DNA of 64,000 nt from Gammaproteobacteria bacterium (GCA_041689615.1 JBDNFW010000026.1:84282-148281); one strand, 5' to 3'. Counted from the first letter of the stretch, positions 17,113-40,964 are shown. Numbers and translations are program-made. The notes: a model not told the origin generated them from the letters alone.

Positions 17113-17127
17113 TTAAATTTAGATATT

Positions 17128-21082: not shown

Positions 21083-21092
21083 ATCTTTATTT

Positions 21093-21866
21093 TTATAATT
21101 CTTTTCTATATAAATCAAACAAGGCAATACTTGATAAAAGAATAACGTAAATTAAAGTCTGGCCGGCAACTATAAGCATGTCTGCTTTTACATCAGATAA
21201 ATATATCAGCCAGCCAGTTTGTGTAAATTTATAAAGATCAGGAATGATATAAGCAATAATGTCCAGTAAGCTATTTATAAATTGATGACTGAACGTACTC
21301 GATGCAATAATTGGAGAATCACTTATTAATTGAATTGCCTCTATCGATCTGGACAGAATATAGAATGCAATCACAACACTGAATGAAATCGTAATGCTGT
21401 TAAACGAAAACAGACATAACAAACTTAATGAAATAATAATTAATAACTCACAAAATAGTGACAATGACCATAATATTACTAAATCAGCTTGAGCATAGAA
21501 ACATAAACAGCCGGCACTCATTAGTGCAATAAGAAATGCAACAACTGAAAATCCGGCAAATTTGCCAAAATAATAGGATGATCGTGGAACAGGATGTGAA
21601 AGAATCAACTCGAAGCCTTTATCATTAAATTCCCGAACCATGCTTGTAATAACAAATAAACCCATTGTAAATACAGAAAATAGTCGCAAAGCTGAAGCGA
21701 GGAGTGCTGACTGCATCTGGGCACCTTCCGTAATAGCAAGTTCACCGATAAACATTGATACTAAAAAAAGAGCAATGACACCCATAAAAATAAAGATAAG
21801 AAATTTATCCCGTATGGCTTCCCAAATTGAATATTTGGCTATTGTCAGTAATAGATTATGATTCAT
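21093..21866 (-). CDS. ABC-2-type transporter permease (about 6 TM)
   Basis: 257 aa. The N-terminus (KYSIWEAIRDKF) matches the ABC-2/NosY/GldF-type start. It is multi-pass hydrophobic. Confidence 0.55.
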   Translation of the reverse strand: MNHNLLLTIAKYSIWEAIRDKFLIFIFMGVIALFLVSMFIGELAITEGAQMQSALLASALRLFSVFTMGLFVITSMVREFNDKGFELILSHPVPRSSYYFGKFAGFSVVAFLIALMSAGCLCFYAQADLVILWSLSLFCELLIIISLSLLCLFSFNSITISFSVVIAFYILSRSIEAIQLISDSPIIASSTFSHQFINSLLDIIAYIIPDLYKFTQTGWLIYLSDVKADMLIVAGQTLIYVILLSSIALFDLYRKEL

Positions 21867-21939: not shown

Positions 21940-23631
21940 ATGACCACTTTTATACATAAATTAATTAAAAAAAGAGAACTTATTGTTCTCGTAATGATGT
22001 TAGAAATGCTGCACCTGTCAATCTGGATTGATTTTGGCAGCATCGTTTCGCGTTTATTTATGCTGAGTCATCTTGGTCTTTTTTTACTATGGCAGCCTGT
22101 GTGGCGTGGCGATGAAAAACTTAGTACTGAAAACACCATCCTTTTTATTGTTTTTACTCTTGCTCTAACTATTTGGTTAAATCTTTGGTTACTCTTTGCC
22201 TGGTTAATTCTATTAATTGGCTTTATCAGCGGTCGCGTTACTTTAGACAATAATGAAAGAACCATTTATGTCTTTGCTTTGGGATTTCTTGTAATAGAAT
22301 TGCTCTTCGCCTGTGTGCCCGAATTGGCAAATGTTAATATTGAAAACAAGCGATTCTTTTATCTTTTACTTCCTGTTCTTCCACTATTAATGCTTGTTTT
22401 TCCAAGCACAAAATCAGAACACCAAGTTCGTATGGTAGATTTCATCCACACGATAACAGCGTCCATGCTTACAAGTTTGGTTGCTCTGGGAAGTTTGTTA
22501 ATCATGTTTATCAATGAAACATCCTATTTTACTGCATTGACTCAAACTTCGGTTGCTATTGGTGGATTTATCATATGCATAAGCTGGTTAATAACATCGC
22601 AGTCTCGTTTCAGTGGTGTTACTCAATTATGGTCTAGCTACATGCTGAACATAGGAACGCCTCTTGAACAATGGTTAACTGAATTATCACGCTTTTCTCA
22701 ACAACAAAATAAACCAGAAGAATTTTTAAAAATTGCTATTAATGAATTACTAACATTAACATGGATCAATGGAATCAGGTGGGCAAGCATTGACTCAAAA
22801 GGAGAAATCGGAAAAATTACCAAACATAGTACACAGTTTAATACTAATAACCTTACCATAGATATTTATACTAATAACTTAATGGGGGGTACGTTATATG
22901 CACATTGCAACTTACTCGTACAGTTAGTTGAAAATTTTTATATCGCCAAGCTTAGAGAGAAAACACTAACACAGCAAACCCATCTAAAAGCAATTTATGA
23001 AACTGGGGCGCGAATAACACACGACATTAAGAACCTACTACAGTCGCTGCAAGCCATTACCAGTATTATTACGCATGACTCCAGTGGTTCCAGTCTTGAA
23101 GTATCACAACAAGTCTTAAAAAGACAATTACCAAATTTAACTCAACGATTGCAACTGGCATTAGATAAATTACAAACGCCTGAAGATTATGATATAGAAG
23201 AAATTTATCTTAAAGACTGGTGGGCTGATATTAAGAAAAGAAATTCACATAATAAAAAAATAGTACTCCAACAAGAAATTCACACTGACCCAACTATCCC
23301 TGTCGATTTATTTGATAGCGTCGTTGATAATTTACTTGAGAACATTCAGGCCAAGCAAATGAACGAACCAGAAATTGATATCACAATCACCCTTGTTTGT
23401 AATGAAAATATGATCAGTGTCACTGTTTGTGACTCAGGCAACATGATTCCAGAAAATATTTCCAGAGAGTTATTATCAAGTGTTATTAGATCCGATAATG
23501 GATTAGGTATCGGTTTATATCAGGCAAGTAAGCATGCTGGAAAATTTGGTTACGATTTAAAATTGGTTAATAACCAACACGGGAGAGTTTGTTTCGAATT
23601 AACTTCACAACAATATAATGAGAATGACTAA
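21940..23631 (+). CDS. Polytopic sensor histidine kinase (PilS-like; about 6-7 TM N-terminal domain)
   Basis: 563 aa with an H-box (ITHDIKNLLQSLQAI) and an HATPase_c G-box (DNGLGIGLY). No cognate response regulator is adjacent. It is convergent with the pilus operon. Confidence 0.75.
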   Translation: MTTFIHKLIKKRELIVLVMMLEMLHLSIWIDFGSIVSRLFMLSHLGLFLLWQPVWRGDEKLSTENTILFIVFTLALTIWLNLWLLFAWLILLIGFISGRVTLDNNERTIYVFALGFLVIELLFACVPELANVNIENKRFFYLLLPVLPLLMLVFPSTKSEHQVRMVDFIHTITASMLTSLVALGSLLIMFINETSYFTALTQTSVAIGGFIICISWLITSQSRFSGVTQLWSSYMLNIGTPLEQWLTELSRFSQQQNKPEEFLKIAINELLTLTWINGIRWASIDSKGEIGKITKHSTQFNTNNLTIDIYTNNLMGGTLYAHCNLLVQLVENFYIAKLREKTLTQQTHLKAIYETGARITHDIKNLLQSLQAITSIITHDSSGSSLEVSQQVLKRQLPNLTQRLQLALDKLQTPEDYDIEEIYLKDWWADIKKRNSHNKKIVLQQEIHTDPTIPVDLFDSVVDNLLENIQAKQMNEPEIDITITLVCNENMISVTVCDSGNMIPENISRELLSSVIRSDNGLGIGLYQASKHAGKFGYDLKLVNNQHGRVCFELTSQQYNEND

Positions 23632-24419
23632 GGTAATACTTCTGCCTTAACCATTCTATTCATCAATATATTCGGTGAAATCCACATTACAATATCATCA
23701 AACTCACAAAGCACATTAGACTCATCAGCATCATCCGTACAACCTGCCGCACCTTCAGAAAAGCTGCGCGAATAAAAATTATTATTTGTATTCGCATCAT
23801 CATTTTCAGCTTCATCAGTAAGCGGCGTAGTTGCTGTCAATACCGTATTATTAATCGTTGTCGCACCTAAACTATTTCTTCCGTGTGAAACAATAACTGC
23901 GGGAACTAAAGTTGCGGCTGTGAATGGTGTCTTAGACTCAATAGCACCACCATTATTAGCATCTCCCCGGCTTAATATAGTTATACCCCCCAATGTCTGA
24001 CATAAATCAAAGTCTCCAGCAGCCCCAGCATCATTAGAGCAAATACCATTATCAAAGGTCGTAAATGCAGGAGTATTTACATGATATTTAAATCGATTTC
24101 CCCAAACATCGCCTTGAATGCTTAATCCCAAGGTCTGCCACGGCAACCAACCATCTCCTGTTGCTGCCGTACATGTTCCCGATGTTGTTGGATCAGAAAC
24201 ACCATCACCATTGGTATCTGGACATGGTAAATATCTATTAATAACAGCGAACCCATATAAGGATTCCATAATGTCATTCATCGTATCTATAGTTTGTTGT
24301 CGTTCCTGTGACTCTATCTGCGTACCAACCGGTCCTAATAATCCGACCATAAGTAAACTAATAATGAATAGAACGACAGAAAGTTCTATTAAGGTAAAAC
24401 CATGTATTTTTTTATTCAT
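23628..24419 (-). CDS. Type IV pilin / pseudopilin-like protein (prepilin N-terminal motif), last gene of the pilus operon
   Basis: MNKKIHG|FTLIELSVVLFIISLL. 263 aa, Cys-rich and Thr/Gly/Asn-rich at the C-terminus. Confidence 0.75.
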   Translation of the reverse strand: MNKKIHGFTLIELSVVLFIISLLMVGLLGPVGTQIESQERQQTIDTMNDIMESLYGFAVINRYLPCPDTNGDGVSDPTTSGTCTAATGDGWLPWQTLGLSIQGDVWGNRFKYHVNTPAFTTFDNGICSNDAGAAGDFDLCQTLGGITILSRGDANNGGAIESKTPFTAATLVPAVIVSHGRNSLGATTINNTVLTATTPLTDEAENDDANTNNNFYSRSFSEGAAGCTDDADESNVLCEFDDIVMWISPNILMNRMVKAEVLP

Positions 24420-26231
24420 TTATGGTCCCGTTGAAATTACACGTGTTTGGTCATTATATATATTCGTAGGGGTATTTTTTAAAAAAGTATCATCAAGATT
24501 AGTATTCTCAATATTATCAAAATAATCCGTTAATAAACCGCTAGGTCTTGCTGCATTAAGATCACCACCAGCAGATAATACGTTAGCGCGGACATTATTT
24601 ATTAACGTACCATTTCTATTCACTGTAAGACATGCTGTGACAAGAGACAGACAATCTTGTCCTGCCGCAGTATCTCCTGGCAAGGGCTCACCTGATGCAT
24701 AAGCGACATAAATCAAATTCTGCCAATCATTAGCAACAAACCATTCAGGTAATTCACTATCATCAATATCCAAGTCATATTGAATTCCTGTAGCTCTGAA
24801 ACTACCTGTAGTACCCGCTACGAAGTTTATAGAGCCTCCACCTATCGTGCTTATTATTGGAGTTAAACAATCTCCAGGAGTACCTCCTGTATAAACGTCT
24901 CGAACCTCGACTGCATTATTCTGGACAGGAAGATCATTTAAACTGACATCGCGTGTTCTTGTAACGAGGTTTGTTGGATTATTGACGCTTGCAGTTCCTA
25001 AGTATTCTGGAATGTTAACATTGTAATTTCTGGTACAAGTAGCGTTTCCACATCCTTGATCACAAACTACAGTTGACATCAATACCCAACCAGCGGTGGC
25101 ACAATCGACTGTATCTTTATTTGTCCAAGTGCAATCAACTGGTGGCGTTGTTACCTGTGTTATTTGAGGATATAAAGGATCAATACAATCGACATTTCTT
25201 AGACAATCTGCCGGTAATGTACCCCATGGAAAATTGCTAGTCGTCGCTGTGCCAGGGTCGGTATGCCATATCCATCCAACCGCTGATTGAAAAGGGTTTC
25301 TTCCAACAATATTCGAACCTGCACCCACTTCGACAGAATCTGGATCATTCGACCAATGGTAGGGTAAATGTCCCTGCACTGTATTTAATGTGCCTCTGAA
25401 TGTTGACACAGATGGATCTGCAAAAGGACTTAACCACGGATAAGCTGCATATGTAGCTTGATAATCATTTATAGTATTTTGTACGTCAGTGAGTACTCTT
25501 TTCTCAACCAAAGTCATTAATTCCAGGCGAGTAATAGTTACAAGTTTGTCATTAAAAATATTTGAATCCCCAGTTGCATCTCTGGTGACAAAGTTTGCAT
25601 CAAGATCATTATTGTCGGCTTCAAGATAATTACTTATTTCAACAGTTATATCTGTTATGGAAGGATCTCTATTTTGACCGATGACTGGTTCGCCAGGTGC
25701 AAGAATAATCGCGACGATATCATCAATATCACCATCCGCCACAACATCAATAACACCATTAATATTTACATCTATATTAAGTTGACCAGGTGTATCACTA
25801 TTTAATGGTTGTAATCCAGCAAAATTTCGAAAATTATCTGAAAGTACATACCATAATTTTTGTCCGCTAGCGTCCTTTAGTTCACTTACATTTAATGTTT
25901 CATTTGGAAACCTTCCGATTGTTCGATTGGTAGGACCAGCCAATGCACATCCACCTTCTGCATCACCATCATTATCAAGATCCGGGCAAGGCAAATATCC
26001 AGGACTTGCATTAGCATTGATTTTATCTGGATAGGTTATCGCATACCCCATTAGTACTTGCTTTGCTTCTGCTAAAACTCTACTTGTTACTAAATCTCTT
26101 GTGTATGGTTTTCTTGCATTGTTTAATTTACTTACCAAAGCATAAGATACAGCAGAAACAAGAAGCAACATAAAAATCAACATCGCGGCACCATGCTGTG
26201 ATTTATATTTGACTGTAAAACTTAAGGTCAT
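24420..26231 (-). CDS. PilX-N-terminal-domain protein (minor pilin-like / putative tip adhesin-like)
   Basis: 603 aa. It has an N-terminal hydrophobic segment (HGAAMLIFMLLLVSAVSYAL) without Glu5, as in PilX/MshP-like proteins. The rest is a large Asn/Thr/Gly-rich domain. Confidence 0.45.
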   Translation of the reverse strand: MTLSFTVKYKSQHGAAMLIFMLLLVSAVSYALVSKLNNARKPYTRDLVTSRVLAEAKQVLMGYAITYPDKINANASPGYLPCPDLDNDGDAEGGCALAGPTNRTIGRFPNETLNVSELKDASGQKLWYVLSDNFRNFAGLQPLNSDTPGQLNIDVNINGVIDVVADGDIDDIVAIILAPGEPVIGQNRDPSITDITVEISNYLEADNNDLDANFVTRDATGDSNIFNDKLVTITRLELMTLVEKRVLTDVQNTINDYQATYAAYPWLSPFADPSVSTFRGTLNTVQGHLPYHWSNDPDSVEVGAGSNIVGRNPFQSAVGWIWHTDPGTATTSNFPWGTLPADCLRNVDCIDPLYPQITQVTTPPVDCTWTNKDTVDCATAGWVLMSTVVCDQGCGNATCTRNYNVNIPEYLGTASVNNPTNLVTRTRDVSLNDLPVQNNAVEVRDVYTGGTPGDCLTPIISTIGGGSINFVAGTTGSFRATGIQYDLDIDDSELPEWFVANDWQNLIYVAYASGEPLPGDTAAGQDCLSLVTACLTVNRNGTLINNVRANVLSAGGDLNAARPSGLLTDYFDNIENTNLDDTFLKNTPTNIYNDQTRVISTGP

Positions 26232-26243
26232 GACCTTTTAAAT

Positions 26244-26753
26244 TTACAGGCTACCTTTGAGGTCTACTGTATCAACGATATCCGTTTCTATAGGTGCAGG
26301 ATTAACGATATCCCTTTCTATTGGTTCAGGAGTAAAGGCTTCTCCAACTCTTAGTTCAACTTTGGTGCTATCATCAGGCATAATAATAGTAACTTGATCA
26401 GATTTAATTTTGTTATCCGGCACTTGAATAAACTGTGAATCCAAATCTCCTTCAAAAGTATTACTATCATTAACCCATGCCGTATTTTTTCCATCACTAC
26501 GGTGAACAAGTCCTCTTAAAGTGATTGAATCACGAATCACTGTCTCTTTTTTAATGAGTTCAGGTTCTTCCACATTTTTGACTTCTTCTATTACAACTTT
26601 TTTGGGTTCTTTCTTTATCAACCTTATTTTTTCCAGCTTTAGTCTTTCTTCAGCTGAAGTAAATAGCCTACCCAAGTTATCTGCATAAACTGGCTGTATA
26701 AAAATATAACTACAGATAACCAAGAATAATTGGCGCTGACAATAAATTTTCAT
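26244..26753 (-). CDS. MshK/PilP-like pilus biogenesis protein
   Basis: 169 aa, signal peptide. Assignment rests on position after the MshJ-like gene. Confidence 0.4.
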   Translation of the reverse strand: MKIYCQRQLFLVICSYIFIQPVYADNLGRLFTSAEERLKLEKIRLIKKEPKKVVIEEVKNVEEPELIKKETVIRDSITLRGLVHRSDGKNTAWVNDSNTFEGDLDSQFIQVPDNKIKSDQVTIIMPDDSTKVELRVGEAFTPEPIERDIVNPAPIETDIVDTVDLKGSL

Positions 26754-27379
26754 CCTATCTTAATCTCCTGACCGCCAACTAGATTTATAGTTATCCAATG
26801 CAATAAACAGGATGCAGAAATATTCGCATGATCTTTTTCAAATTGAATTTTATTGCCATTCATTCTGAAAGTGCATTCGGACAATGTATAGATTCCTTCT
26901 GCAGACTGATTTAGATAATCGAGCAATTTAAATAAATCTCCTTCATGCAACAAGCCTAAATTAAGCTCCATACTGCTACGATAAAGCGTATAACCGCTAT
27001 AGTTGATGCTGTACTCGGGGATATGTTCTTCTTGAGAATTTATCGAATATGTTAATAAAGGCAGTTTGACATTTTCTCCCGCTTGTCTTAACGCTTCTAT
27101 CCAATTCAATCTTTTTTCATGACCTATAATGCCTTGATTATATAACTTAACAAATTGTGGATAGTAATTATGCAGCAATTTTTCTTCCTGATCTACGTCC
27201 AGGTATCGTCGACTGATAGACTGAAAAATACTCTTATTATTAATATATTCTTTATTTAAGTTGCTATTAAAATAATAACTTGAACCTATTAGGGTACTCG
27301 CAATAACAAGACAGACACAAAATATAATGAGTGGGCCTTTCAAGATACTCCAGTCTATTTCATTTTTCTTTTCCATCAA
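26750..27379 (-). CDS. MshJ/PilO-like inner-membrane pilus assembly protein
   Basis: 209 aa with a single N-terminal TM then a periplasmic domain. Its position and size fit MshJ. Confidence 0.45.
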   Translation of the reverse strand: MMEKKNEIDWSILKGPLIIFCVCLVIASTLIGSSYYFNSNLNKEYINNKSIFQSISRRYLDVDQEEKLLHNYYPQFVKLYNQGIIGHEKRLNWIEALRQAGENVKLPLLTYSINSQEEHIPEYSINYSGYTLYRSSMELNLGLLHEGDLFKLLDYLNQSAEGIYTLSECTFRMNGNKIQFEKDHANISASCLLHWITINLVGGQEIKIG

Positions 27380-28962
27380 TTCACTCCGACCACGGCTCTT
27401 AACGAAAACAAAGCTGTTTTGCCTTTAGACCGGGTATTTCCTTGTAAAGTAGCCTTTGAACTTATATCAAGAGGAAATGATTCAATACTAACTGAGTATG
27501 CTGAATCAAAACCGCTAAGTGTCTCAGCAAACTCATTCACCATGGCTATTGCTTCACGATAATTGCCATCAAATGGTTCGATGTGTGCGCTTAGATTAGA
27601 TATCTGATAATACTTCACTTGATTAATATCATTCACTATATCTACCGGCAAATTATCGCTATTGTCTTCTACTGCAGTGCCTTTATTCGGATCAAGACTA
27701 AAAATCCAATCTATATCATCCAATTTTATTTTCGGATATTGTTCCAAGCCCTTACCCAAAAAACTCAACATCTCATGGGGAGTCGATTTATATTCTTCCA
27801 ATGTTGCTACAGCATCAACTGCCACTTTAATCTGTGCTGGCTCGACCGGAGTTTTTGGCAAGCGTTCTCTGGCAAGATCGTATCGAACCTGGTAGAAGTC
27901 AGCCTTATTTTTCGATGACTCACTCTCCTGCTTATATGTCAGTCCACCCATAAAATTCAAACCGCTATATATAACACTAACAAATAATAATGTGGCACTG
28001 GCAACATTCATAGCATGCCGCATATTACGCATTTTTAAGTAACGCATCTCACTAGAAGAAGCGTAGCAATTTTTAACCTGATCTTTCAATAGGTGGCAAA
28101 GCAGTAATTGATCGCTGAATGGAACCGTTTGCACAGCACTTTTTTGAATAGACTCTAGTAATTTATTTACATCGTAATAATGCCGCTTTAGCATTCGTGC
28201 TGAAACTTTTCTTTTTTCTAATTCATCCAAAGTTGTTTTATCAGCTATCACGTATACATCTAAAGAAGTGTCATTCGGTATTAAGCGCAGACTGTTAAGA
28301 TAACGCTGAATTTTTTCAACCTCGGATTCGATTCTTGGTGCGTACGACTCGGTTCCGAAACGCGGTAATTTTGAAAGACGACTGATCTTTAATTCTTTCT
28401 TATGAAAAAAAGTCTGCCTCAACCCACTGATACTCTGCATCGTTACAATCAATGCGTGATCCGAAATATCCGGTAAGGTTTTAATATAGGATTGGAGTAA
28501 CAAAGGAACAGAAAGCATGCCCTTTAATGGCACTTTATATTTATCGAGTAACTCTATCCAGGGTTCTACTATGTCCTGTTTAGTTAACGCAACGAACAAT
28601 AAACGATCATCGCGACGCCCTTCTACTTCACGACCTTGACTTTGCACATAGACATAATCAGCATCTCGGAACAAGCGAGATTGTTTACGCTCAATCAATG
28701 CTGTTCTATCTGAACCAAAAACATGAGGGATAGTATCTTGCCGAAACTCTTCTTCAATGACGTCAACTAAAATAGTCATTGGTGTATTTTCAGTCTCTTT
28801 CAAGTACCGTTCAAAATTGTTACGCCCAGCATCATCGATATCAAACATGTATGAACTACCAAGCTCGCCTTTATCCCAGTGGTACACGGATACCTTATCA
28901 GCACTAATAAAGAGTGCGCGTCTGTTAAAAAAATCAGATTTTGACTTTTGTAATGAGATCAT
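27376..28962 (-). CDS. MshI-like pilus assembly protein (PilM-like N-terminus fused to a TM + PilN-like C-terminus)
   Basis: 528 aa. It has a cytoplasmic N-terminal domain, a TM at about aa 330-350, then a periplasmic domain. This architecture is typical of MshI. Confidence 0.45.
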   Translation of the reverse strand: MISLQKSKSDFFNRRALFISADKVSVYHWDKGELGSSYMFDIDDAGRNNFERYLKETENTPMTILVDVIEEEFRQDTIPHVFGSDRTALIERKQSRLFRDADYVYVQSQGREVEGRRDDRLLFVALTKQDIVEPWIELLDKYKVPLKGMLSVPLLLQSYIKTLPDISDHALIVTMQSISGLRQTFFHKKELKISRLSKLPRFGTESYAPRIESEVEKIQRYLNSLRLIPNDTSLDVYVIADKTTLDELEKRKVSARMLKRHYYDVNKLLESIQKSAVQTVPFSDQLLLCHLLKDQVKNCYASSSEMRYLKMRNMRHAMNVASATLLFVSVIYSGLNFMGGLTYKQESESSKNKADFYQVRYDLARERLPKTPVEPAQIKVAVDAVATLEEYKSTPHEMLSFLGKGLEQYPKIKLDDIDWIFSLDPNKGTAVEDNSDNLPVDIVNDINQVKYYQISNLSAHIEPFDGNYREAIAMVNEFAETLSGFDSAYSVSIESFPLDISSKATLQGNTRSKGKTALFSLRAVVGVN

Positions 28963-30139
28963 AAATAGGTCCTAAAACTGAAAACATAACCCAGGCAATA
29001 ATACTACCCAGAACAATAGTCATCGCCGGCTCAATCATCGACTGAAGTCTTTCAATAGATTCTTTAACATCACGTGTATAAAAATAACTAATATTCGATA
29101 AGGCATTCTCCAATGCACCTGTACTTTCGCCAACACGAATCATACGTAGTACAAGTGGAGGGAATATGCCTACTTGAGAAAAACTATCACTTAATGTCGT
29201 GCCATCAGAAATTTTCTGTCCAACCTGATGCATAGCAAGTGCAATTGATTTATTACCAGCAATCTCTTCCCCTGTTCTTATGCAATCGATAATGGTAATT
29301 CCAGATGAATACATAATGGCAAAGAAACTACAAAGCCGCGTTAATATAATTTTTTTAAGTATTGGACCAATTACCGGAATTTTTAACTTCAGTTCATCAT
29401 ATTTTAAATGGAATGCTGGACTTGTTTTAATACCAATATAAATACCCAAAATAATAACGATGGGTATCAACAGTAAAATATACCAATAATTAACGAAGAT
29501 ATTTGATACGACAATAAGTACTTTGGTATGAACAGGTAATTCTTGTCCCATTGTTTTAATAAAACGTAATAATTCAGGTACTAGATAAGTCATTAAAAAG
29601 AAGACCACTCCACCAACAACTGTTCCGACAAACGCTGGATAAGTCAGTAATTTTTTTGTAAGCGCCGCTTGTTCATCTTGCCATTTAAGACTGATGCCAA
29701 GTTCTTCAAACACCTTACTAATCTGACCGGATTGTTCGCCTGCGCTAACCAGGTTAGTAAATATTTTTCCAAACACGTTTTCAAATTCTGCCATGGCCTG
29801 AGCTAAAGTTTTACCACCTTCAATAGCTTCGATCATTGCATTTGTCACTTCTGCCATTCTTGGATTATCGCTACTGTCTCTTAAATCCTGCAAACTCTCC
29901 AATACAGGCACGCCGGCACGAGATGTTTGTTCAAAATGAAAACAGAACGTAATTAAATCGCGTCGCTTAATGCCTGAAGCTGAAAAACTTTTAACTCTCG
30001 ATTTAACTTCTTTACAATTAACTAAATCAAGTTTTAGCTTATTAAGACGCATTTCCAGATCAGCAATATTAGCTGCATCAACCTGGCCATTATGGATACG
30101 ACCACGTTTATCTATCGCCTTGTATTGATAAGCTTCCAT
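28934..30139 (-). CDS. mshG: Type II secretion / type IV pilus platform protein (GspF/PilC/MshG family)
   Basis: 401 aa. It has two T2SSF repeats with 3 TM regions. Confidence 0.85.
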   Translation of the reverse strand: MEAYQYKAIDKRGRIHNGQVDAANIADLEMRLNKLKLDLVNCKEVKSRVKSFSASGIKRRDLITFCFHFEQTSRAGVPVLESLQDLRDSSDNPRMAEVTNAMIEAIEGGKTLAQAMAEFENVFGKIFTNLVSAGEQSGQISKVFEELGISLKWQDEQAALTKKLLTYPAFVGTVVGGVVFFLMTYLVPELLRFIKTMGQELPVHTKVLIVVSNIFVNYWYILLLIPIVIILGIYIGIKTSPAFHLKYDELKLKIPVIGPILKKIILTRLCSFFAIMYSSGITIIDCIRTGEEIAGNKSIALAMHQVGQKISDGTTLSDSFSQVGIFPPLVLRMIRVGESTGALENALSNISYFYTRDVKESIERLQSMIEPAMTIVLGSIIAWVMFSVLGPIYDLITKVKI

Positions 30140-30143
30140 ATTT

Positions 30144-31859
30144 CTAGTGTGCTTTCAATCTGCCAGTTAAATCAACAACTCTGGACATCTCTTCAAGGCT
30201 GGTCAAACCTTCTAGTACCTGCCCTGCACCAACATCCGCCAAAGTTTTAAATCCTTTTGACAGTGCCATGCGTAATAAATCTCGTTGTGTTCCTTTGCGT
30301 GCAATTAATTCATCGATGTCAGTATCAAAATGTAATACTTCCTGAAGTGCAATTCGTCCTTTGTAGCCTTGATTTTCACAAACACTACAACCTTTGGCTT
30401 TATAAATTTCTTTTTGCTTATCTGTTATTTTCAGATTGAGCAATCCTCGTTCCAGATCGCCTAATGCATACGGTTCTTTACAAGATTGACATAAACTTCG
30501 AATTAATCGCTGCGCAATAATACCGATTATGTTGCCAGCAATAATATCCGGCTTAACGCCAATATCGAGTAAGCGTGGAATTGATCCCAGAGCCGAATTT
30601 GTATGTAGTGTTGAAAATACCTGATGACCTGTCATTGCTGCACGAAAAGCCATACTAGCGGTATCTTCATCACGTATTTCACCAACTAGAATAATATCCG
30701 GGTCCTGGCGCATCAAAGAACGAATACCACTGGCAAAATCAAGCCGAGTAGTATCACTCACCGATGTTTGCCTAACCATCGTCGTCGGATATTCAACCGG
30801 ATCTTCCAGAGTCATAATATTCACAGACTCTGTATTTAGATAATTCAATATCGAATATAAGGTTGTCGTTTTACCGCTACCGGTTGGCCCCGTAACAAGA
30901 ATAATACCTTCTGGTCTAGCGACCATTAATTTAAGTGTGTTCTGCGCTTCTTCTTTTAAGCCAAGTTGATCAAAAGAAACAATGCCTTTTTGTCTATCCA
31001 AAACACGAAGAACAATATTCTCACCATGTACTGTTGGCAAAGTAGAAACGCGAAAATCAATCGGACGTCCTGATAAAGATAAGGAAATACGTCCGTCTTG
31101 CGGCGCTCTCGTTTCAGCAATATCCATCCCTGACATAACTTTTACTCGTACAGCAATAGCTGACCAATAATTTTTATGCAGGCTGCGAACCTGCCTTAAT
31201 ACACCATCAATACGATATCGAAAACGCAGAAAACCTTCTTCAGGTTCAAAATGTATATTTGATGCATTTCGCTTAACCGCATCCGCAAGTAATGCATTCA
31301 CTAATCGAACAACGGGTTGACTATATTGATCAGACTCTGCGTCAAGACTCTGGTAGTCGATCTCACCTGTTTCTATTTCATGTAATATGCCATCAACAGA
31401 AAGTTCGAAGCCATAAAATTGATCAATTGCCTTTTCAATTTCGGCTTCACCAGCCAGTACTGGAATTACTTCTGAGTTACCGCCAAGATGAGTGTTGATT
31501 TGATCCAGTGCTACAACGTTAAACGTATCCGCCATAGCAAGGGTAAGTATTCTTCGCTGACTATCGTAAGTTAGCGGGAGTACTCTTAATCTTCTAGCCA
31601 TGTCCTTTGGAACCATACGTACCGCATCACCATCGGCAACGGCTGTGCGCAGATCGATACTCTCCTGGCCAATAACCCCACCAATAACATCACGAATAAT
31701 TGATTCTGTAGCGAAACCAAGACGAACAAGAATTTTACCAAGATGTTCCTTACTGCGTTTTTGTTCAGTTAAAGCAATATTAATCTGATCAAGAGTAGTT
31801 ACACCCTTACTAACCAGGATTTCACCGAGTCGGAAATGTTTTTTATGGGCGACGGTCAC
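30144..31859 (-). CDS. mshE: MshE-type secretion ATPase (GspE/PilB family) with an N-terminal c-di-GMP-binding MshEN domain
   Basis: 571 aa. The N-terminus has tandem RLGxxLVxxGVxTxxQLxxAL motifs (FRLGEILVSKGVTTLDQINIAL; HLGKILVRLGFATESIIRDVI). The C-terminus has Walker A (GPTGSGKTT), Asp/His boxes and a CxxC tetracysteine. Confidence 0.85.
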   Translation of the reverse strand: MTVAHKKHFRLGEILVSKGVTTLDQINIALTEQKRSKEHLGKILVRLGFATESIIRDVIGGVIGQESIDLRTAVADGDAVRMVPKDMARRLRVLPLTYDSQRRILTLAMADTFNVVALDQINTHLGGNSEVIPVLAGEAEIEKAIDQFYGFELSVDGILHEIETGEIDYQSLDAESDQYSQPVVRLVNALLADAVKRNASNIHFEPEEGFLRFRYRIDGVLRQVRSLHKNYWSAIAVRVKVMSGMDIAETRAPQDGRISLSLSGRPIDFRVSTLPTVHGENIVLRVLDRQKGIVSFDQLGLKEEAQNTLKLMVARPEGIILVTGPTGSGKTTTLYSILNYLNTESVNIMTLEDPVEYPTTMVRQTSVSDTTRLDFASGIRSLMRQDPDIILVGEIRDEDTASMAFRAAMTGHQVFSTLHTNSALGSIPRLLDIGVKPDIIAGNIIGIIAQRLIRSLCQSCKEPYALGDLERGLLNLKITDKQKEIYKAKGCSVCENQGYKGRIALQEVLHFDTDIDELIARKGTQRDLLRMALSKGFKTLADVGAGQVLEGLTSLEEMSRVVDLTGRLKAH

Positions 31860-33571
31860 AACTTTGATTCAATTAATTTTGATAGAACAAGAATGCGTTT
31901 ATTTACAGGAACAGGATCGAATCTTGTAGAAGAATTATGTGACAGATCAATTGCCGTCTTATAATAATCCAGTGCTGTATCATATTGCCCCATCTGATCA
32001 AGGCTAATGGCTAAATTGTGTAAATAATCAGGATTAGTCGTATCCAGTCGATAGGCATCAAAAAATGCTTGCTGCGCGTTAGCCCACCTTTTTTGCTTTG
32101 CGTATAAATTGCCCAATGAGAAATACAAATAAGGAACATCGTCTTCTCGTTGTATTAACAATTTAATCGCACTCTCATCTTTTACTGGGTCGGCACTGTT
32201 TGATAAACCAATCAATGCATTCATTGATATCGTATCTAACGGGTTTAATTCTAATAAATGAACATAATGAGAATAAGCGCTCTTTCTATCTTGATTACTG
32301 ATAGCAATGGCAGCAAGGCCAAGATGTGCATCACGATTATCAGGGTCGTTTTTTAAAACATCTTCATAAATTGATGTCGCGGCATCATAATGACCCTCTT
32401 GATAAGCTTTGAATGCCTGACTTACCATCACGTTATCTTCTTTTAACTTTTTACTCTTACTAATGTTAATTAATGATGCATCAACCTGAATATTTTCTGG
32501 AAACGATGCAATAGAATCTTCAGTATTTATTTCATCATCGATAGCTGCATCAACAATAATTGGTTCAATCACTTCTTCAAAAACAATATCGCTACTTGTC
32601 TTGCCTACCGATACTACTTCATCAGTTTTACTTTCACTGGATTCAGTTGTTACTACTACATCTGATGTTGTTATGCCTGCTTGTTCATCTACTTGCATAA
32701 CCATATCTTGTTTTTCAATAGTTTCTGTTGGCTGTTCGACTACATCTCCCACAACCTCAGTTTGCACTTCCTCAATTACAGGAGCTACTAATATAGCTGC
32801 AGAGTCAACGCCACTAGACTCGATACCACGGGCAATTAACGGTGAAGGCAGGTTTCTGGAAACAGGAGTAATAGTAAAATAATAGAAAATAGCAAATGAC
32901 CCCGCAGCTAATAATGCGAGCACAGCAAAAACACCCCATTTAAATGAGCTTTGTTTTTTGTTTGGTCTCCCTGCAGAAAAAACAGTTTTTGCTGCGACAG
33001 GAGTCGGTTGAAATTTACCACCGCCAAGATCTTTTGCTAGTTGATCAGCAGTACCACCTGGTAAAGTTTCTTCATAAATATCTGTTTCTCGTTCATCTTC
33101 CTCAAACAAGGCACCATGGAAAGTATCATCGTACGGAGCAGAAGCACTTTCAGTACTTAATCCTTCTATAATAGTGGTATCGTTAAGATCGATAACTTTT
33201 TGAGTATCTTCAAATTTTTCCTGAGAATCATCTCTCTTAGAAATGGTATTTTCAAGCGTCAATTCTTCAGAAAAAACTTCAGACTGATCTACTGTAGGGA
33301 CGTCTCTTTCATTAAGGTTACTAGCAACTTGTGCTTCTTTAGTATTTTCAACTCTTTCAGCAAGAGAAAGTGGCTCAAGTGAGAATTGAGATGTGTCCGT
33401 ATATTGTTCTGGAACAGCTTTTTCCTTTGCAACTGCTTGCTCTTGCTTATCATCTTCAATTTGATTTTCGCCCGATGTCTCGCGCGCCTCCATCTCTACT
33501 TCTTGGAGTCGCTTCGCTGCTCGCTTTTTTTCTTCTTCTGCCTTTTTCAAGGCATCCATCAAGAGACTCAA
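31856..33571 (-). CDS. TPR-repeat membrane protein (MshN-like) with a long acidic N-terminal region
   Basis: 571 aa with an acidic N-terminus, a TM (WGVFAVLALLAAGSFAIFYYF) and C-terminal TPRs. It is translationally coupled to mshE and the secretin gene. Confidence 0.55.
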   Translation of the reverse strand: MSLLMDALKKAEEEKKRAAKRLQEVEMEARETSGENQIEDDKQEQAVAKEKAVPEQYTDTSQFSLEPLSLAERVENTKEAQVASNLNERDVPTVDQSEVFSEELTLENTISKRDDSQEKFEDTQKVIDLNDTTIIEGLSTESASAPYDDTFHGALFEEDERETDIYEETLPGGTADQLAKDLGGGKFQPTPVAAKTVFSAGRPNKKQSSFKWGVFAVLALLAAGSFAIFYYFTITPVSRNLPSPLIARGIESSGVDSAAILVAPVIEEVQTEVVGDVVEQPTETIEKQDMVMQVDEQAGITTSDVVVTTESSESKTDEVVSVGKTSSDIVFEEVIEPIIVDAAIDDEINTEDSIASFPENIQVDASLINISKSKKLKEDNVMVSQAFKAYQEGHYDAATSIYEDVLKNDPDNRDAHLGLAAIAISNQDRKSAYSHYVHLLELNPLDTISMNALIGLSNSADPVKDESAIKLLIQREDDVPYLYFSLGNLYAKQKRWANAQQAFFDAYRLDTTNPDYLHNLAISLDQMGQYDTALDYYKTAIDLSHNSSTRFDPVPVNKRILVLSKLIESKL

Positions 33572-35268
33572 AGCGAATCATCTCCTTTTTCCGATTTACT
33601 GCCTAAAGGACGATAACCGTTAGATATGTATTTTTTATATTCTTCTAAATCGCTTTCTATATCTGGGCTATTAATAATTACCGGTTTAATGAATATAACC
33701 AGTTCTTTTTTTGTATATTCTGCTCTAGTCGATTTAAAAATATTGCCAAAAAAATCTGCATTTTTAACACCGGGAAGACCAGCGTCGCTGTCCTTTATTT
33801 CATCTTCCATTAGTCCGCCTAGCACACCGATTTGCCCATCACTCATTCTCAGTACCGATTCCATTTCTCTAACGGCAATTTGAGGAATTTGATTTGTAAC
33901 GGTCGTACCTCCTGCAGGAGTAAAAGTAGCGTTTGGATTCGGATCAGTAACGCCTTTTACAAATCGTGAGATTGTTGGTCTCACTACTAATGTTATTTCT
34001 CCATTAGAATCTATCTGTGGTGTTACTGACATAACTATACCAACGGGAACGGTTAAAGCCGTAGTATCGACTGATGTTGTCGCTGTCCCACCAACAAAAG
34101 TAGCAGGAACTACTTCAGCATCAACTTCAAAATAAACCAGGTTTTCCACCACTTTCAGCAACGCCGTCTGATTATTCAAAACCATCATCTGCGGACTGGA
34201 GAGAATTTTAACGTCACCAAACTCATCTAATAAAGTCACTGTGTAGTCAATACTATCAGCATTAACATTAGCGTTAGTACCCACTATATTTTTTTCACTT
34301 AGGTCATTTTTAATCACTAAAGAACTGCCTGCTGTTGTAGCAAAACCTGCAAGCCCACCTGCAGTTGTTGATGCTATCGTAAACAATCCCGTGCTTATAG
34401 CATTCCAATCAATACCAGCCTGATATCTTTCGCTAAGTGTTACTTCAACAATAGTTGTCTGAATTAGCACTTGCCGTTTTGCACTAACTAGCACCTGATC
34501 AATAAAGGACTGTATTTGTTCATGTTGTGCTGCTGTCGCTCTAACAGTCAAAACACCTGACTCAGGGTTAGGAATGACGGTATTCGTAACCGGTATTTCT
34601 CCTCCAGATGCCGCAGATGTTTCATCTCCTAAAATCGCAGAGATATTTGTTACTAATCTTGACCAAAAATGGTGTTTCGATTCAGTGCTAACATCCGTCG
34701 TTGAACTATTTCCTGAACCACCACCACTGGACTCGCCGCCTCCACTTGTAGAAGATATTTGTGTTGAGACCGTACTTGTACTAGTAGTATCTCTGGACAA
34801 ATTTACATAATCAATTTTATAAGTACGTAAAAATGGCGTGTCCTTTGAGATAAACAAATTGTTGCCTTCCTGTACATAACGTATATCTACCTGATTGGAT
34901 ATTCGTTTTAAAATCTGTGGCAGGGTTTGTTCAACCGCGTTAATCGTAACGACACCTTCAATTTCCGGATGGATATCAACATTCACTTTGGCGTCACGTG
35001 CCAGGGCAAATAATAATTCTTTTACCGGCACTTCGTTAACAACAACCGTATAGCGTTCTGGCGGGTCAACTGGCGTTGGTTCTGGTAGAACAGGTACTTG
35101 CTCAACAAGCTCAGGAATGTTTGAGTCTATTACTGAAGGTGATTCTTCAGCATTTATATGCCCTGTTGATGGCTCAAAAGGTTTAGGCTCAAGTTCAGCG
35201 CAGCCGAAAATGAACATCATCACTGCAAACAAAATGATTTTTTTAATCATTATTAACATTGCCCCCAA
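33568..35268 (-). CDS. mshL: Secretin (GspD/PilQ family), MshL-like lipoprotein
   Basis: 566 aa with a lipobox (IFGCAE). The secretin C-domain has a Gly-rich beta-barrel and an STN/N-domain. Confidence 0.8.
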   Translation of the reverse strand: MGAMLIMIKKIILFAVMMFIFGCAELEPKPFEPSTGHINAEESPSVIDSNIPELVEQVPVLPEPTPVDPPERYTVVVNEVPVKELLFALARDAKVNVDIHPEIEGVVTINAVEQTLPQILKRISNQVDIRYVQEGNNLFISKDTPFLRTYKIDYVNLSRDTTSTSTVSTQISSTSGGGESSGGGSGNSSTTDVSTESKHHFWSRLVTNISAILGDETSAASGGEIPVTNTVIPNPESGVLTVRATAAQHEQIQSFIDQVLVSAKRQVLIQTTIVEVTLSERYQAGIDWNAISTGLFTIASTTAGGLAGFATTAGSSLVIKNDLSEKNIVGTNANVNADSIDYTVTLLDEFGDVKILSSPQMMVLNNQTALLKVVENLVYFEVDAEVVPATFVGGTATTSVDTTALTVPVGIVMSVTPQIDSNGEITLVVRPTISRFVKGVTDPNPNATFTPAGGTTVTNQIPQIAVREMESVLRMSDGQIGVLGGLMEDEIKDSDAGLPGVKNADFFGNIFKSTRAEYTKKELVIFIKPVIINSPDIESDLEEYKKYISNGYRPLGSKSEKGDDSL

Positions 35269-35326
35269 GTTTCAGCATTTGTATTTTATAAATCATTACA
35301 TTAATTATCACAAAAAAGTTGCCACA

Positions 35327-36820
35327 TTATAGCTTTTTGTCGTCTTTCAATGGCCGATAAATAATTGTACTACAGAGCTTACAAGTAAGCTCATTCGCCA
35401 TAGTTTTATAGTTAATAGCCGTTTCTGCAGGCAGAATAGCCAATTGATTCAACAATTCCATATCGTCTTCACCACGCTCACTTACTGCGTTTATCAAAGC
35501 CTGTATATCAAGCAAACCACTTTCGCTCAACGTATCTTCAGTATTTGTCACTGCTACTGATATATTAACCGGCTTGTCGTCCGGATAGAAAAAAACATTC
35601 TGTAAAGTTGACTGCCATTGAGCCATTTCCAACTCGTCTGGCGCTGGTCGCGGAACTAACACTTCCGATTTCACATTATCAGTTTCGACGTTATAAGCAG
35701 CTTCACTTTCGAGGATTTCATTAACTGAAGATAATACTGTATTTTCTTCTACCGACTTAGCAACCGTATCTACTTGGGATAGTTTCTCTTCACTTTCACG
35801 CACCTCTTTCACTAACATTAATGAGGTATTCGCAGACTTTGATAACTCGGCATTTTCAATTTTTGCCGTTGAACTATTTTGACCAATAAGATTTGCATCA
35901 TTTAATGCAATAGATGAAGAATTCTTGCTAGACCAAGCCAACACTAAAGCAACAACTATAATGACTGAAAGACTAATTAAACCCCAACGAAAAACAGGAA
36001 ATTCTTGCTTATCAACAAATTCTGTTTCACGTGCCGCAAGTTTTACATGTTTTACAGAAACCGTGCTTTGATTATCTGCATAACTGGCTAATAAAGCTTT
36101 ATCAGACAAAATATTAATTCGTCGCAATAAACCATTTGAATATTTTGAAATAGTTTTTATTGCTTTGTCACTAAATAATTCAACCGACCGATAACCACAT
36201 GCTCGTAAACGTGAATTAATATAATCCTTAACTTCATGAGGTTTAAACGGAGATAAATAAAAGCTATACGTAATCCTTTCTTTCAATTGTCTGATTTCAG
36301 GTTTGGAGATCATGACATCCAATTCTGGCTGACCAAAGATAACGATTTGCAGTAATTTATTTTGGGCTGTTTCCAGATTGCTTAGTAAGCGAATTTCTTC
36401 CAATGTCGCGATAGGCATGCTTTGCGCTTCTTCAACAAAGACAACAACCTGTTTATTTTCGGCATGTTGTTCCAGTAAATAATTCTGTAATGAATTCATT
36501 ACTTTTAAACGACTGTCATCTGGCTGCACTTTTAATTTAAGTTCGAAAGCAATCGCGTGCAAAATATTATCGGGAGAAAGACTCGGATTCGCTAAATAAA
36601 CTATTTCAACATTGTCTGGTAATTCTTTTTCCAACATACGACAAAGAGTGGTTTTGCCACTACCCACTTCACCAACTAATTTGACAATACCTTCACCACT
36701 AACAATGGCATAAATAAGTGCATCTAGAATTGCACCGCGATCACCTCCAGGGAAAAATAAACTCGGATCAGGAGTTATTTTGAAGGGAGGTTGTTTTAAG
36801 CCAAAATATTCGTAGTACAT
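35327..36820 (-). CDS. mshM: ExeA/GspA-type AAA+ ATPase (MshM-like) with a C-terminal TM + about 200-aa extension
   Basis: 497 aa. The N-terminus has YFGLKQPPF and GEVGSGKTT (ExeA/MshM family), followed by a TM segment. Confidence 0.75.
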   Translation of the reverse strand: MYYEYFGLKQPPFKITPDPSLFFPGGDRGAILDALIYAIVSGEGIVKLVGEVGSGKTTLCRMLEKELPDNVEIVYLANPSLSPDNILHAIAFELKLKVQPDDSRLKVMNSLQNYLLEQHAENKQVVVFVEEAQSMPIATLEEIRLLSNLETAQNKLLQIVIFGQPELDVMISKPEIRQLKERITYSFYLSPFKPHEVKDYINSRLRACGYRSVELFSDKAIKTISKYSNGLLRRINILSDKALLASYADNQSTVSVKHVKLAARETEFVDKQEFPVFRWGLISLSVIIVVALVLAWSSKNSSSIALNDANLIGQNSSTAKIENAELSKSANTSLMLVKEVRESEEKLSQVDTVAKSVEENTVLSSVNEILESEAAYNVETDNVKSEVLVPRPAPDELEMAQWQSTLQNVFFYPDDKPVNISVAVTNTEDTLSESGLLDIQALINAVSERGEDDMELLNQLAILPAETAINYKTMANELTCKLCSTIIYRPLKDDKKL

Positions 36821-36836
36821 TAGTTTTACCGTTTGC

Positions 36837-38279
36837 TCATTCCGAGTTTGTCTCTATATTTAAGCGCTGTAATCTACTATATAGTGTAGTCCTATTTACA
36901 CCTAACATACGTGCAGCTTTGCTCAAATTGCCATTACATTTCGCTAAAGCATGATTGATGTATTTTCTTTCCCACTCAGACATTTTGTCATCCAGTTGAA
37001 AACTTTTATCTTTCAATTCTTGCTTAACAAACTCGTCTTCATTAGCAACTTCAATCTGTTGTAGATCAAAATCGCTCTCTAATTCTGCCTGCAAATTTTG
37101 TACGGTTACCGTTTTACCGGCGTATTTTGCCGAGAGACGAATTGCGATATTTCGCAGCTCTCTGATATTACCCGGAAAGCTATATTGTTCTAGTACCGAC
37201 TTGGCATCGTCTGCTAATTCAAATGGTGGATTTCCAGCCGCATACATTCCTCTAAAATACTCCATCAAAATCAACACATCATGTTCGCGTTCTCTCAATT
37301 CGGGAACGTGTATTGTCAAAACACAAAGTCGGTGATATAGGTCTTGTCGAAAGCCACCAGCACGTATCTCTTCTTTTAAGTCACGATTTGTCGCGGCGAT
37401 AATTCTTGCTTTAGATAAACGTGGTTTGGTTTCACCAATTCGATAAAACTCACCATTTTCTAAAACCCTCAACAATTTTGATTGTAATGGTAAAGGTAAT
37501 TCACCAATTTCATCCAAAAACAATGTTCCTTCGCCTGCTTCTTCAAAAAAACCGGCACGCTCAGTCGCGGCTCCAGTAAAAGCACCTTTTGTGTGACCAA
37601 ACAACTGTGCTTCTAATAATTCAGGTGTAAATGCAGCACAATTGATCGTCAGATAAGGCAGGTTAGAACGGTTACTTGAATGATGTAATTCTTCCGCAAC
37701 AAGCTCTTTGCCGGTACCCGACTCGCCTTCAACAAGAACTGGAAAAGGTGTGTCGGCAAATTGCTGAATCAAATCACGTAATGTTTTTAGTGCCGTACTT
37801 TCACCGAGTAGTTTCGTTTCATTAAGCGCCAGTTCTTTTTCTGAAGACTCCGCCTGCAACATCGTCATTTGATATTCCAGTCTGGATCTCAATAAAGACA
37901 TATCACAAGGCTTAGGAATAAAATCGACAGCACCTAGAGTCAGCGCATGATGAATATTCACATCTTCATTCTGCCCCGACAAAACCAGAATCTTGAAGCT
38001 GTCATTCAATGACATTAGCTCTTCAATTAATTTGAAACCTTCTTCCGGCGAATGCGGTTTTGGTGGCAAGCCAAGATCAATTAAAGCGAGTGAAGGCTTG
38101 ACCGATAAATCCTGAAGCAATGACTTAACTTGCTTGCGAGATTCGGCTGTTATAACTTCAAAATCTTTTTGCAGAACGATAGAAAGTGCATCGACAATGA
38201 TGGGATCATCGTCAACAAATAATAATAAGGGCTTTTCTGCACTTACTGACATATCTAATTTTTGAGAATTCGATGACAA
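36837..38279 (-). CDS. Sigma54-dependent Fis-family response regulator (PilR-like NtrC-type activator)
   Basis: 480 aa with a REC domain, an AAA+ sigma54-interaction domain (GESGTGKELVA, GAFTGA) and a C-terminal Fis HTH. The start may be the second Met at 38252. Confidence 0.85.
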   Translation of the reverse strand: MSSNSQKLDMSVSAEKPLLLFVDDDPIIVDALSIVLQKDFEVITAESRKQVKSLLQDLSVKPSLALIDLGLPPKPHSPEEGFKLIEELMSLNDSFKILVLSGQNEDVNIHHALTLGAVDFIPKPCDMSLLRSRLEYQMTMLQAESSEKELALNETKLLGESTALKTLRDLIQQFADTPFPVLVEGESGTGKELVAEELHHSSNRSNLPYLTINCAAFTPELLEAQLFGHTKGAFTGAATERAGFFEEAGEGTLFLDEIGELPLPLQSKLLRVLENGEFYRIGETKPRLSKARIIAATNRDLKEEIRAGGFRQDLYHRLCVLTIHVPELREREHDVLILMEYFRGMYAAGNPPFELADDAKSVLEQYSFPGNIRELRNIAIRLSAKYAGKTVTVQNLQAELESDFDLQQIEVANEDEFVKQELKDKSFQLDDKMSEWERKYINHALAKCNGNLSKAARMLGVNRTTLYSRLQRLNIETNSE

Positions 38280-40937: not shown

Positions 40938-40964
40938 GTTGTTCTCCTATAAATAACAAAATAA

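Follow-up and report, generated by a model that had tools for sequence, protein, structure and literature searches.

The mannose-sensitive hemagglutinin (MSHA) pilus of Vibrio cholerae, Aeromonas and Shewanella represents the MSH class of type IV filaments (Denise et al. 2019, PMC6668835), the loci of which normally lack a prepilin peptidase gene. Extension of the Vibrio MSHA pilus is controlled by the ligand cyclic di-GMP (c-di-GMP) (PMC7096442), and the c-di-GMP layout of the MshEN domain consists of two 24-residue RLGxx..LxxxLxxQ motifs with a 5-residue spacer (PMC5013675). In the type IVa pili of Pseudomonas aeruginosa and Myxococcus xanthus, the major pilin gene is under two-component control by PilS and PilR (PMC6058289, PMC6060248). 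A locus that combines features of these systems is described here from a 64-kb stretch of DNA of a Gammaproteobacteria bacterium (GCA_041689615.1, JBDNFW010000026.1:84282-148281), which is called the window below and over the full length of which all coordinates are counted.

The locus is a variant among the type IV filament systems related to MSH, and its MSH relatives are recognisable. It is read here as a complete, functional filament machine of a conserved MSHA-related subtype, most likely one that forms an adhesive extracellular pilus, and the probability of this reading is put at about 0.6. As in MSHA, a single locus without a peptidase gene encodes an MshL-like lipoprotein secretin, an MshM-type AAA ATPase and an MshN-type tetratricopeptide repeat (TPR) protein, and the gene of an MshEN-bearing ATPase is followed by a platform gene, with the M/L-N-E-G block kept. 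In contrast to MSHA, in which the genes run I-J-K-L-M-N-E-G-F-B-A-C-D-O-P-Q, the order here is M-L-N-E-G-I'-J'-K'-X-A, and MshF, B, C, D, O, P and Q are missing from the cassette. PilM-like and PilN-like parts are fused in a protein of 528 amino acids (aa), whereas they are encoded by separate genes in the Aeromonas and Legionella reference loci, and the I', J' and K' proteins are undetectable by PilN and PilO models. Further differences from MSHA are the separate clade of the cassette ATPase, a membrane helix and a periplasmic extension in the MshM-like protein, and the attachment of a PilSR-like pair and a sigma-54-driven pilin to the cassette.

Gene content and conservation of the cassette

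Eleven open reading frames, all on the minus strand, encode proteins of 480, 497, 566, 571, 571, 401, 528, 209, 169, 603 and 263 aa. The junctions are mostly 4-nt overlaps or gaps of 0–16 nt; only the ExeA-like and secretin genes, which are 58 nt apart, and the platform and 528-aa genes, which overlap by 29 nt, depart from this. An initial annotation of the DNA had described eleven co-directional and mostly coupled genes, and all of them are found with unchanged positions and sizes. The histidine kinase gene that it had placed convergently at the distal end is also present, on the plus strand, and overlaps the stop codon of the 263-aa pilin gene by 4 nt. The genes are as follows.

36837..38279, minus strand: sigma-54-dependent response regulator (REC, AAA+ and HTH_8 by Pfam), PilR-like by its inferred role
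35327..36820, minus strand: MshM/ExeA-like AAA ATPase (AAA_22 at residues 42-168; one membrane helix)
33568..35268, minus strand: MshL-like lipoprotein secretin (Pfam Secretin and Secretin_N_2; lipobox)
31856..33571, minus strand: bitopic protein with TPR families at residues 380-550, an MshN/TadD-like secretin-assembly factor
30144..31859, minus strand: filament-assembly ATPase with an N-terminal MshEN-type domain, putatively c-di-GMP-binding (T2SSE 434.9 bits, MshEN 49.6 bits)
28934..30139, minus strand: inner-membrane platform protein of the GspF/PilC/MshG family (two copies of T2SSF)
27376..28962, minus strand: 528-aa PilM-PilN (GspL/MshI-type) fusion by predicted fold
26750..27379, minus strand: 209-aa bitopic inner-membrane protein in the PilO/GspM/MshJ position (membrane helix 12-30)
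26244..26753, minus strand: 169-aa secreted periplasmic protein in the PilP/MshK/GspC position (GRLFT..ER motif, beta-rich domain)
24420..26231, minus strand: 603-aa large modular pilin-like protein without Glu5, candidate tip or initiator subunit (GspG-like pilin-fold N-domain)
23628..24419, minus strand: 263-aa prepilin (G|FTLIE; N_methyl 30.8 bits), probably a minor pilin
21940..23631, plus strand: polytopic histidine kinase without a periplasmic sensor domain (HATPase_c), PilS-like by its inferred role

Pfam and NCBIfam models agree with the domain content that had been assigned to seven components, namely the regulator, the AAA_22 ATPase, the secretin, the TPR protein, the ATPase with MshEN and T2SSE, the T2SSF platform and the N_methyl prepilin. 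No Pfam or NCBIfam model matches the 528-, 209-, 169- or 603-aa protein, even at E values up to 10, and the labels MshI-like, MshJ-like, MshK-like and PilX-like that these proteins had received were guesses to which sequence models lend no backing.

When the 528-aa family served as the query against one genome per species, 153 genomes matched, and 80 of the 153 loci were examined. Apart from a few contigs that are evidently mislabelled, the 80 kept loci come from metagenome-assembled genomes (MAGs) of uncultured Gammaproteobacteria. In essentially all loci whose length allows a judgement, the order is fixed: metF, regulator, ExeA-like ATPase, secretin, TPR protein, assembly ATPase and platform are followed by the 528-, 209-, 169- and 603-aa proteins, the pilin, the convergent kinase, an ABC-2 permease and a 256-aa gene. 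Because this arrangement is kept at identities of the 528-aa protein that range from 84% down to 37%, its conservation is far beyond chance. The nine-gene core, from the secretin through the 263-aa pilin, is also present in a Gallionella MAG and in two further lineages, where all parts are found by family hidden Markov models (HMMs); these distant cassettes are referred to as L092-L094. On the Gallionella contig, canonical pilM and pilN lie near the cassette, which indicates that the cassette coexists there with type IVa pilus genes. In a set of 1.84 billion representative metagenomic proteins, the profile of the 528-aa family matches 2508 clusters (50% identity), of which 1077 reach E <= 1e-30, and all named homologues are called "hypothetical protein".

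The retention of the same order and content in the 80 loci, in Gallionella and in the two other lineages does not fit the reduced or rearranged oddity that had been suggested initially. These data also contradict the view that the locus is a decaying or rearranged msh remnant without function. The many missing canonical msh genes and the unusual order would be expected of such a remnant, but all genes are intact and translationally coupled, the arrangement persists down to about 37% identity and in other lineages, and the ATPase is 66-98% identical across the gammaproteobacterial clade, which makes loss of function highly improbable. The GC content of the operon region is approximately 36-40%, like that of its surroundings, and that of the host is approximately 39%; together with the uncultured gammaproteobacterial MAG relatives, these values agree with the AT-rich gammaproteobacterial host proposed at the outset.

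Envelope components and the assembly ATPase

The components were compared with the Aeromonas caviae msh locus and a Legionella Msh-like locus. Among NCBIfam models, TIGR02519 (MshL) matches the secretin best by far, with 235.7 bits, which is under the cut-off of 250.2; GspD reaches 146 bits (cut-off 351) and PilQ 85 bits (cut-off 284). The secretin, which has its lipobox cysteine in the sequence FGC at residues 21-23, is 25-29% identical to MshL and forms one group with the Aeromonas and Legionella MshL proteins with 100% bootstrap in a small neighbour-joining tree. For the platform protein, GspF is the best NCBIfam model (291.6 bits, below the cut-off of 424); its identity to MshG is 25%, and it groups with Aeromonas MshG, the single MshG reference, with 93% bootstrap. 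The TPR protein, which has a membrane helix at residues 214-232, shares 31% identity with Aeromonas MshN over 126 aa (E 2.5e-4).

The N-domain of the ExeA-like protein is 40% identical over 270 aa to Aeromonas MshM and 39% identical to the Legionella homologue, and TIGR03015 matches the protein with 217 bits, below the cut-off of 324; a search of the window with E. coli GspA gives no match at E<0.01. The protein is therefore an MshM-type AAA ATPase with an additional membrane helix (residues 276-294) and a C-terminal extension of approximately 200 aa of no known family. This periplasmic extension ends in a conserved CxxC motif, C-K-L-C-S-T-I-I-Y-R-P-L (window 35327-35400), which is seen at the DNA level in many loci. 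A link to PEP-CTERM/exosortase systems was considered from the best NCBIfam names of several components (PrsR, PrsK and a pepcterm ATPase) and was rejected: all of these matches are far under their cut-offs, no exosortase lies nearby, and MshM fits the ATPase better.

The MSHA-type machine of the initial annotation is consequently recognisable in the secretin (MshL), the platform (MshG), the ExeA-like protein (MshM), the TPR protein and the MshEN domain. The assembly ATPase has the domain architecture of MshE (MshEN and T2SSE), but its assignment to the MshE clade is not reproduced by the tree. This ATPase forms its own clade with 100% bootstrap and is left out of the PilB+GspE clade (100%); its NCBIfam scores for PilB (524 bits, cut-off 676) and GspE (523 bits, cut-off 630) are both below threshold. 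Neither the secretin nor the ATPase falls within the Gsp clades of type II secretion systems (T2SS) in these trees. In the ATPase's N-terminal domain, MshEN motif 1 (R10-Q33) is intact and the spacer has 5 residues, the 53-residue stretch is nearly invariant in 63 homologues, and the c-di-GMP motif model NF053729 scores 52.6 bits, over its cut-off of 38. Control of extension by c-di-GMP, as for Vibrio MSHA, is plausible but unproven.

An AlphaFold2 model of the 528-aa protein (pLDDT 78), which includes a long helix, predicts a cytoplasmic actin-like domain, a membrane/coiled-coil helix and a periplasmic ferredoxin-like domain. By fold, the N-domain is PilM-like and the C-domain is GspL/PilN-like, with resemblance to the periplasmic domains of XcpY and EpsL, which bears out the proposed PilM/N fusion at the level of the predicted fold only. 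The 209-aa protein is bitopic and is kept in the cassette; none of 17 members of its family matches Pfam, no PDB profile matches it, and hhalign comparisons with MshJ, GspM and HofO are negative. In the 169-aa protein, a signal peptide is accompanied by a GRLFT..ER motif that is near-invariant and by a beta-rich domain; its family has no Pfam or PDB match. Profile-to-sequence hhalign comparisons of the three families with MshI/J/K, GspL/M/C and HofM-P are negative; the sole exception is a marginal match (E 0.018) of the 169-aa family to the HR region of GspC from E. coli. Apart from this match, a sequence link of the 528-, 209- and 169-aa proteins to PilM/N/O/P, MshI/J/K or GspL/M/C failed in Pfam searches, which covered every family member, and in PDB profile and hhalign searches, and a likeness to the PilN and PilO families, as which MshI/J/K are seen, exists only for the fold of the 528-aa protein. 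From position and topology, we infer a PilO-like role for the 209-aa protein and a PilP-like role for the 169-aa protein.

Pilin-like proteins and proposed sigma-54 control

A second prepilin gene, which lies outside the coordinates of the initial annotation, is situated downstream of the cassette together with two regulatory elements.

18056..18820, minus strand: 254-aa second prepilin (QKG|FTLVEIAIVL; N_methyl 32.7 bits)
18871..18886, minus strand: sigma-54-type promoter TGGCATGATCTCTGCT, 51-66 nt upstream of the start codon of the 254-aa prepilin
18010..18030, minus strand: intrinsic terminator (9-bp stem with 6 G-C pairs, T-rich tail), directly after the 254-aa prepilin gene

Orthologues of the 254-aa prepilin, with 42-77% identity, are found downstream of the cassette in 26 loci, and in L094 the orthologue directly follows that of the 263-aa pilin. 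The conserved sigma-54 promoter and the strong terminator indicate that the 254-aa prepilin is probably the major pilin, and the 263-aa prepilin is probably a minor pilin. These proteins resemble the Aeromonas Msh pilins in the N-terminal helix only; an MshA-type major pilin accompanied by the MshB/C/D/O/P/Q set is not recognisable, and a comparison of the window with the Aeromonas Msh proteins reveals no counterparts of MshB, C, D, O, P, Q or F. No homologues of a prepilin peptidase, PilT, GspG-K or the Msh minor pilins are detectable in the 64-kb window, which agrees, within that window, with the missing peptidase and mshF/B/C/D/O/Q genes noted in the initial annotation. Given the usual composition of MSH loci (PMC6668835), the missing peptidase is normal.

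In its predicted structure, the 603-aa protein has a pilin-fold N-domain, for which the pseudopilin EpsG is the best structural match. The beta-rich C-domain has no sequence match and no significant structural match to any solved structure; a Foldseek search of the 603-aa model against the PDB returns no significant matches, and no Pfam family is found in eight homologues of 624-1139 aa. Orthologues range from 345 to about 1150 aa in length. The 603-aa and 263-aa families are paralogous, their HMMs cross-matching at E 1e-14 to 1e-23, and the paralogy of the 263-aa protein is to both ends of the 603-aa protein, its N-terminal and its C-terminal part. Both contain a YLPCPD..DGD motif. Across both families, the (Y)LPCPD-x-(N/D)-x-DG motif with nearby conserved cysteines resembles an acidic Ca2+-binding loop that may be stabilised by a disulfide. 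In one related locus (L049, 9875-11739, minus strand), two extra prepilin genes (226 and 392 aa) are inserted in the opposite orientation between the 169-aa and 603-aa orthologues.

Large modular minor pilins are a feature of type IVb pili, in which they are represented by TcpB and CofB, and GspK is a tip pseudopilin. The present locus resembles these cases in having one large pilin-like protein without Glu5, an added beta-rich domain and a small pilin set alongside. It differs from them in that the C-domain of the 603-aa protein lacks a match to solved structures and in the length range of its orthologues.

The regulator contains Sigma54_activat (220.7 bits), Response_reg and HTH_8 domains by Pfam and has GAFTGA in its sequence; among NCBIfam models, PrsR (353 bits) and NtrC (351 bits) fit it best, each under its cut-off. 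The kinase has approximately 7 predicted membrane helices, the H-box ITHDIKN and a weak match to PrsK. The two genes are lost together in four loci (L017, L045, L055 and L077). Of 24 loci with the kinase, 23 have a promoter motif at the same position before the 254-aa prepilin gene, whereas none of the 3 kinase-less loci does (Fisher's exact test, p = 0.0014), and its background rate in other upstream regions is 4.2%. In two of the three kinase-less loci the regulator is also missing, and the third locus is not covered at the regulator region.

In the initial annotation, the operon had a sigma-54 activator of its own at its head. Neither in nor before the eleven-gene operon do consensus scans of the window and the 80 loci find a conserved sigma-54 promoter, and the conserved one fronts the 254-aa prepilin gene instead, so that this proposal was dropped; TATAAT-like boxes are present between the ExeA-like and secretin genes in many loci. 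With the sigma-54 promoter at the 254-aa pilin and none within the operon, the simplest reading is that the kinase and regulator form a PilS/PilR-like pair that drives the distal pilin, probably the major one. The layout found here, a predicted sigma-54 activator, a polytopic kinase and a sigma-54 promoter upstream of a pilin gene, is that of PilS-PilR systems, which share with this locus a polytopic kinase without a periplasmic domain, a REC-AAA-HTH activator and the monocistronic pilin gene behind the promoter. Unlike in those systems, the kinase and regulator genes here are not adjacent but stand convergently at opposite ends of the operon, the pilin gene is approximately 5 kb away, and the regulator matches PrsR and NtrC best.

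A membrane-anchored class III adenylate/guanylate cyclase is encoded between the ABC-2 genes and the second prepilin (19095-20351, plus strand; Guanylate_cyc 96 bits). It occupies the same place in 24 related loci, and a cyclic-nucleotide input to the pilus system is possible. The genes for ABC transporter components and their companions are as follows.

20357..21866, minus strand: ABC-2 permease (257 aa; ABC2_membrane_2/3/4) and 256-aa bitopic protein
16513..17853, minus strand: ABC ATPase (241 aa; ABC_tran) and 199-aa protein, downstream of the 254-aa prepilin

The ABC-2 permease and the 256-aa gene adjoin the kinase gene in about 50 loci, and the DrrA/GldA-like ABC ATPase follows the 254-aa prepilin in 24 loci. 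These genes flank the second pilin syntenically across the gammaproteobacterial clade, in a layout that recalls the Myxococcus pilGHI ABC genes. By analogy with pilGHI (PMC6060248) they were considered as parts of the machine, and this was dropped: they are confined to the gammaproteobacterial clade and are absent from L092-L094. Since they are missing from the distant cassettes, they are counted as neighbours only, and the membership of both groups in the system is uncertain.

The operon region is flanked by a block of metK, an S-adenosylhomocysteine (SAH) riboswitch, ahcY and metF. The riboswitch (40960-41046, minus strand) scores 54.9 bits against a gathering score of 37 and is placed directly upstream of ahcY (39522-40937) and metF (38419-39288). 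The distance from metF to the start of the regulator gene is 140 nt, and the adjacency to metF is kept in most related loci. Elsewhere in the window are a 6S RNA gene (59266-59446, plus strand; 80.7 bits), a tRNA gene (3394-3466, minus strand) and genes for a HipA-like kinase toxin (1385-2659, minus strand), an AsmA-family protein of 1165 aa (4882-8379, minus strand) and a Ser/Thr protein kinase of 493 aa (14974-16455, plus strand). A plasmid of Candidatus Manganitrophus (CP114559.1, locus L085, 1-15500) carries an unrelated type IV pilus-like cluster, in which pilM and pilT occur together with a platform gene, two assembly ATPases, two large prepilins (398 and 501 aa), an ABC permease, a hypothetical protein of 1613 aa and two hypothetical genes.

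Placement among type IV filament systems

In the machine proposed here, the 209-aa (PilO/GspM-like) and 169-aa (PilP/GspC-like) proteins would complete the inner-membrane alignment complex. The 603-aa protein, which lacks Glu5, and its 263-aa paralogue would prime assembly, sit at the filament tip and display the variable beta-rich domain, and the 254-aa prepilin would be the bulk subunit of the filament. The prepilins would be processed by a peptidase encoded elsewhere in the genome. Regulation may act at two levels: the polytopic kinase and the sigma-54 regulator would act as PilS and PilR on the 254-aa pilin promoter, while c-di-GMP would be coupled to extension through the MshEN domain of the ATPase.

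Several points weigh against this reading. The assembly ATPase joins MshE with only 6-19% bootstrap, and its identity to MshE (36%) is no higher than that to PilB and GspE (37-39%); the trees are neighbour-joining trees with very few reference sequences. In MshEN motif 2 (H39-V62), the arginine is replaced by histidine and the glutamine by valine or alanine, which leaves c-di-GMP binding unproven. The comparisons of the 209- and 169-aa proteins with PilO/GspM/MshJ and PilP/GspC/MshK are all negative or marginal. The major and minor pilins are told apart solely by their promoter, terminator and conservation, and the three kinase-less loci may represent one single loss event. Additionally, the window reveals no filament, no retraction ATPase and no prepilin peptidase.

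Type IVa pili are a poor fit to the locus: the PilB and PilQ models stay under their cut-offs, the window has no PilT, and the PilM and PilN parts are fused. The locus could also be a genuine MSHA locus that belongs to the MSH family proper, in which the genes are reordered and the small parts have diverged past recognition. Counterparts of the mandatory TXSScan set for MSH (mshA, E, G, L and M; PMC6668835) exist here, MSH proteins are the nearest to the secretin, platform, MshM-like and TPR proteins, the single locus without a peptidase is as in MSH (PMC6668835), and Gallionellaceae genomes have been annotated with an "MSHA pilin cluster" (PMC10734482), which may or may not equal this cassette. 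This assignment is nevertheless unlikely in view of the separate clade of the ATPase, which has no support for joining MshE, and of the MshL model score under the curated cut-off. Aeromonas MshI-C matches Pfam PilN and MshJ matches PilO/T2SSM, whereas the window proteins and 17 relatives match neither. The missing counterparts of MshB, C, D, O, P, Q and F also argue against it, and the pilin set is a different one, with one pilin that has a GspG-like N-terminus and two pilins with the LPCPD motif.

Other features are shared with the T2SS. The 528-aa protein has the fused actin-like and ferredoxin-like architecture of GspL, the genes follow an E-F-...-L-M-C-like order, and T2SS-like clusters in Skermanella and Methylomonas are ordered E-F-pilins-L-M-x. 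The ExeA-like membrane ATPase stands beside the secretin and has the AAA-membrane-periplasm layout of GspA. The similarities of the platform to GspF, of the 528-aa C-domain to XcpY and EpsL and of the 603-aa N-domain to EpsG would likewise suit a T2SS-like system, in which a short pseudopilus made of the pilins would act in the periplasm and drive folded substrates out through the secretin. Such a function is improbable, because the secretin and platform group apart from GspD and GspF, the ATPase is outside the PilB+GspE clade with 100% bootstrap, and the ExeA-like domain matches MshM, not GspA. GspD, GspE and GspF equivalog scores are all under their cut-offs. Homologues of GspC and of the GspG, H, I, J and K pseudopilins were not found; the GspG-K models give N-terminal motif matches only, far under their cut-offs, and tblastn with E. 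coli GspG-K is empty. In addition, the sigma-54/PilSR-type promoter and the strong terminator on the monocistronic 254-aa pilin gene are the signature of an abundant fibre subunit, and no candidate substrate gene is conserved beside the cassette.

A bolder claim, which is tentative and itself rather unlikely, is that the cassette is not an MSH variant and constitutes a distinct, unnamed class of type IV filaments with its own ATPase lineage, its own alignment families and a modular tip pilin of new fold. The cassette is widespread in uncultured marine and groundwater Proteobacteria, and through its hypervariable tip protein of 345-1150 aa it might have a function not yet linked to MSH pili.

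With the locus read as an MSHA-related filament machine, its interest lies in the breadth of the cassette, the unannotated core families, the separate ATPase lineage and the tip-protein domain without a known match. Type IV filament classes number a handful and have been defined almost wholly from cultured pathogens. Since four core proteins (528, 209, 169 and 603 aa) have no Pfam or NCBIfam model, profile-based annotation would leave them unnamed in many environmental Gamma- and Betaproteobacteria. The cassette looks intermediate between MSH pili and the T2SS, as it joins MshL/M/N/G-like parts to a fused GspL-like protein, and its regulatory layout is compact, with a PilSR/sigma-54 module and an MshEN domain in one locus. 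As a candidate surface determinant, the variable tip protein may decide to what these uncultured bacteria attach.

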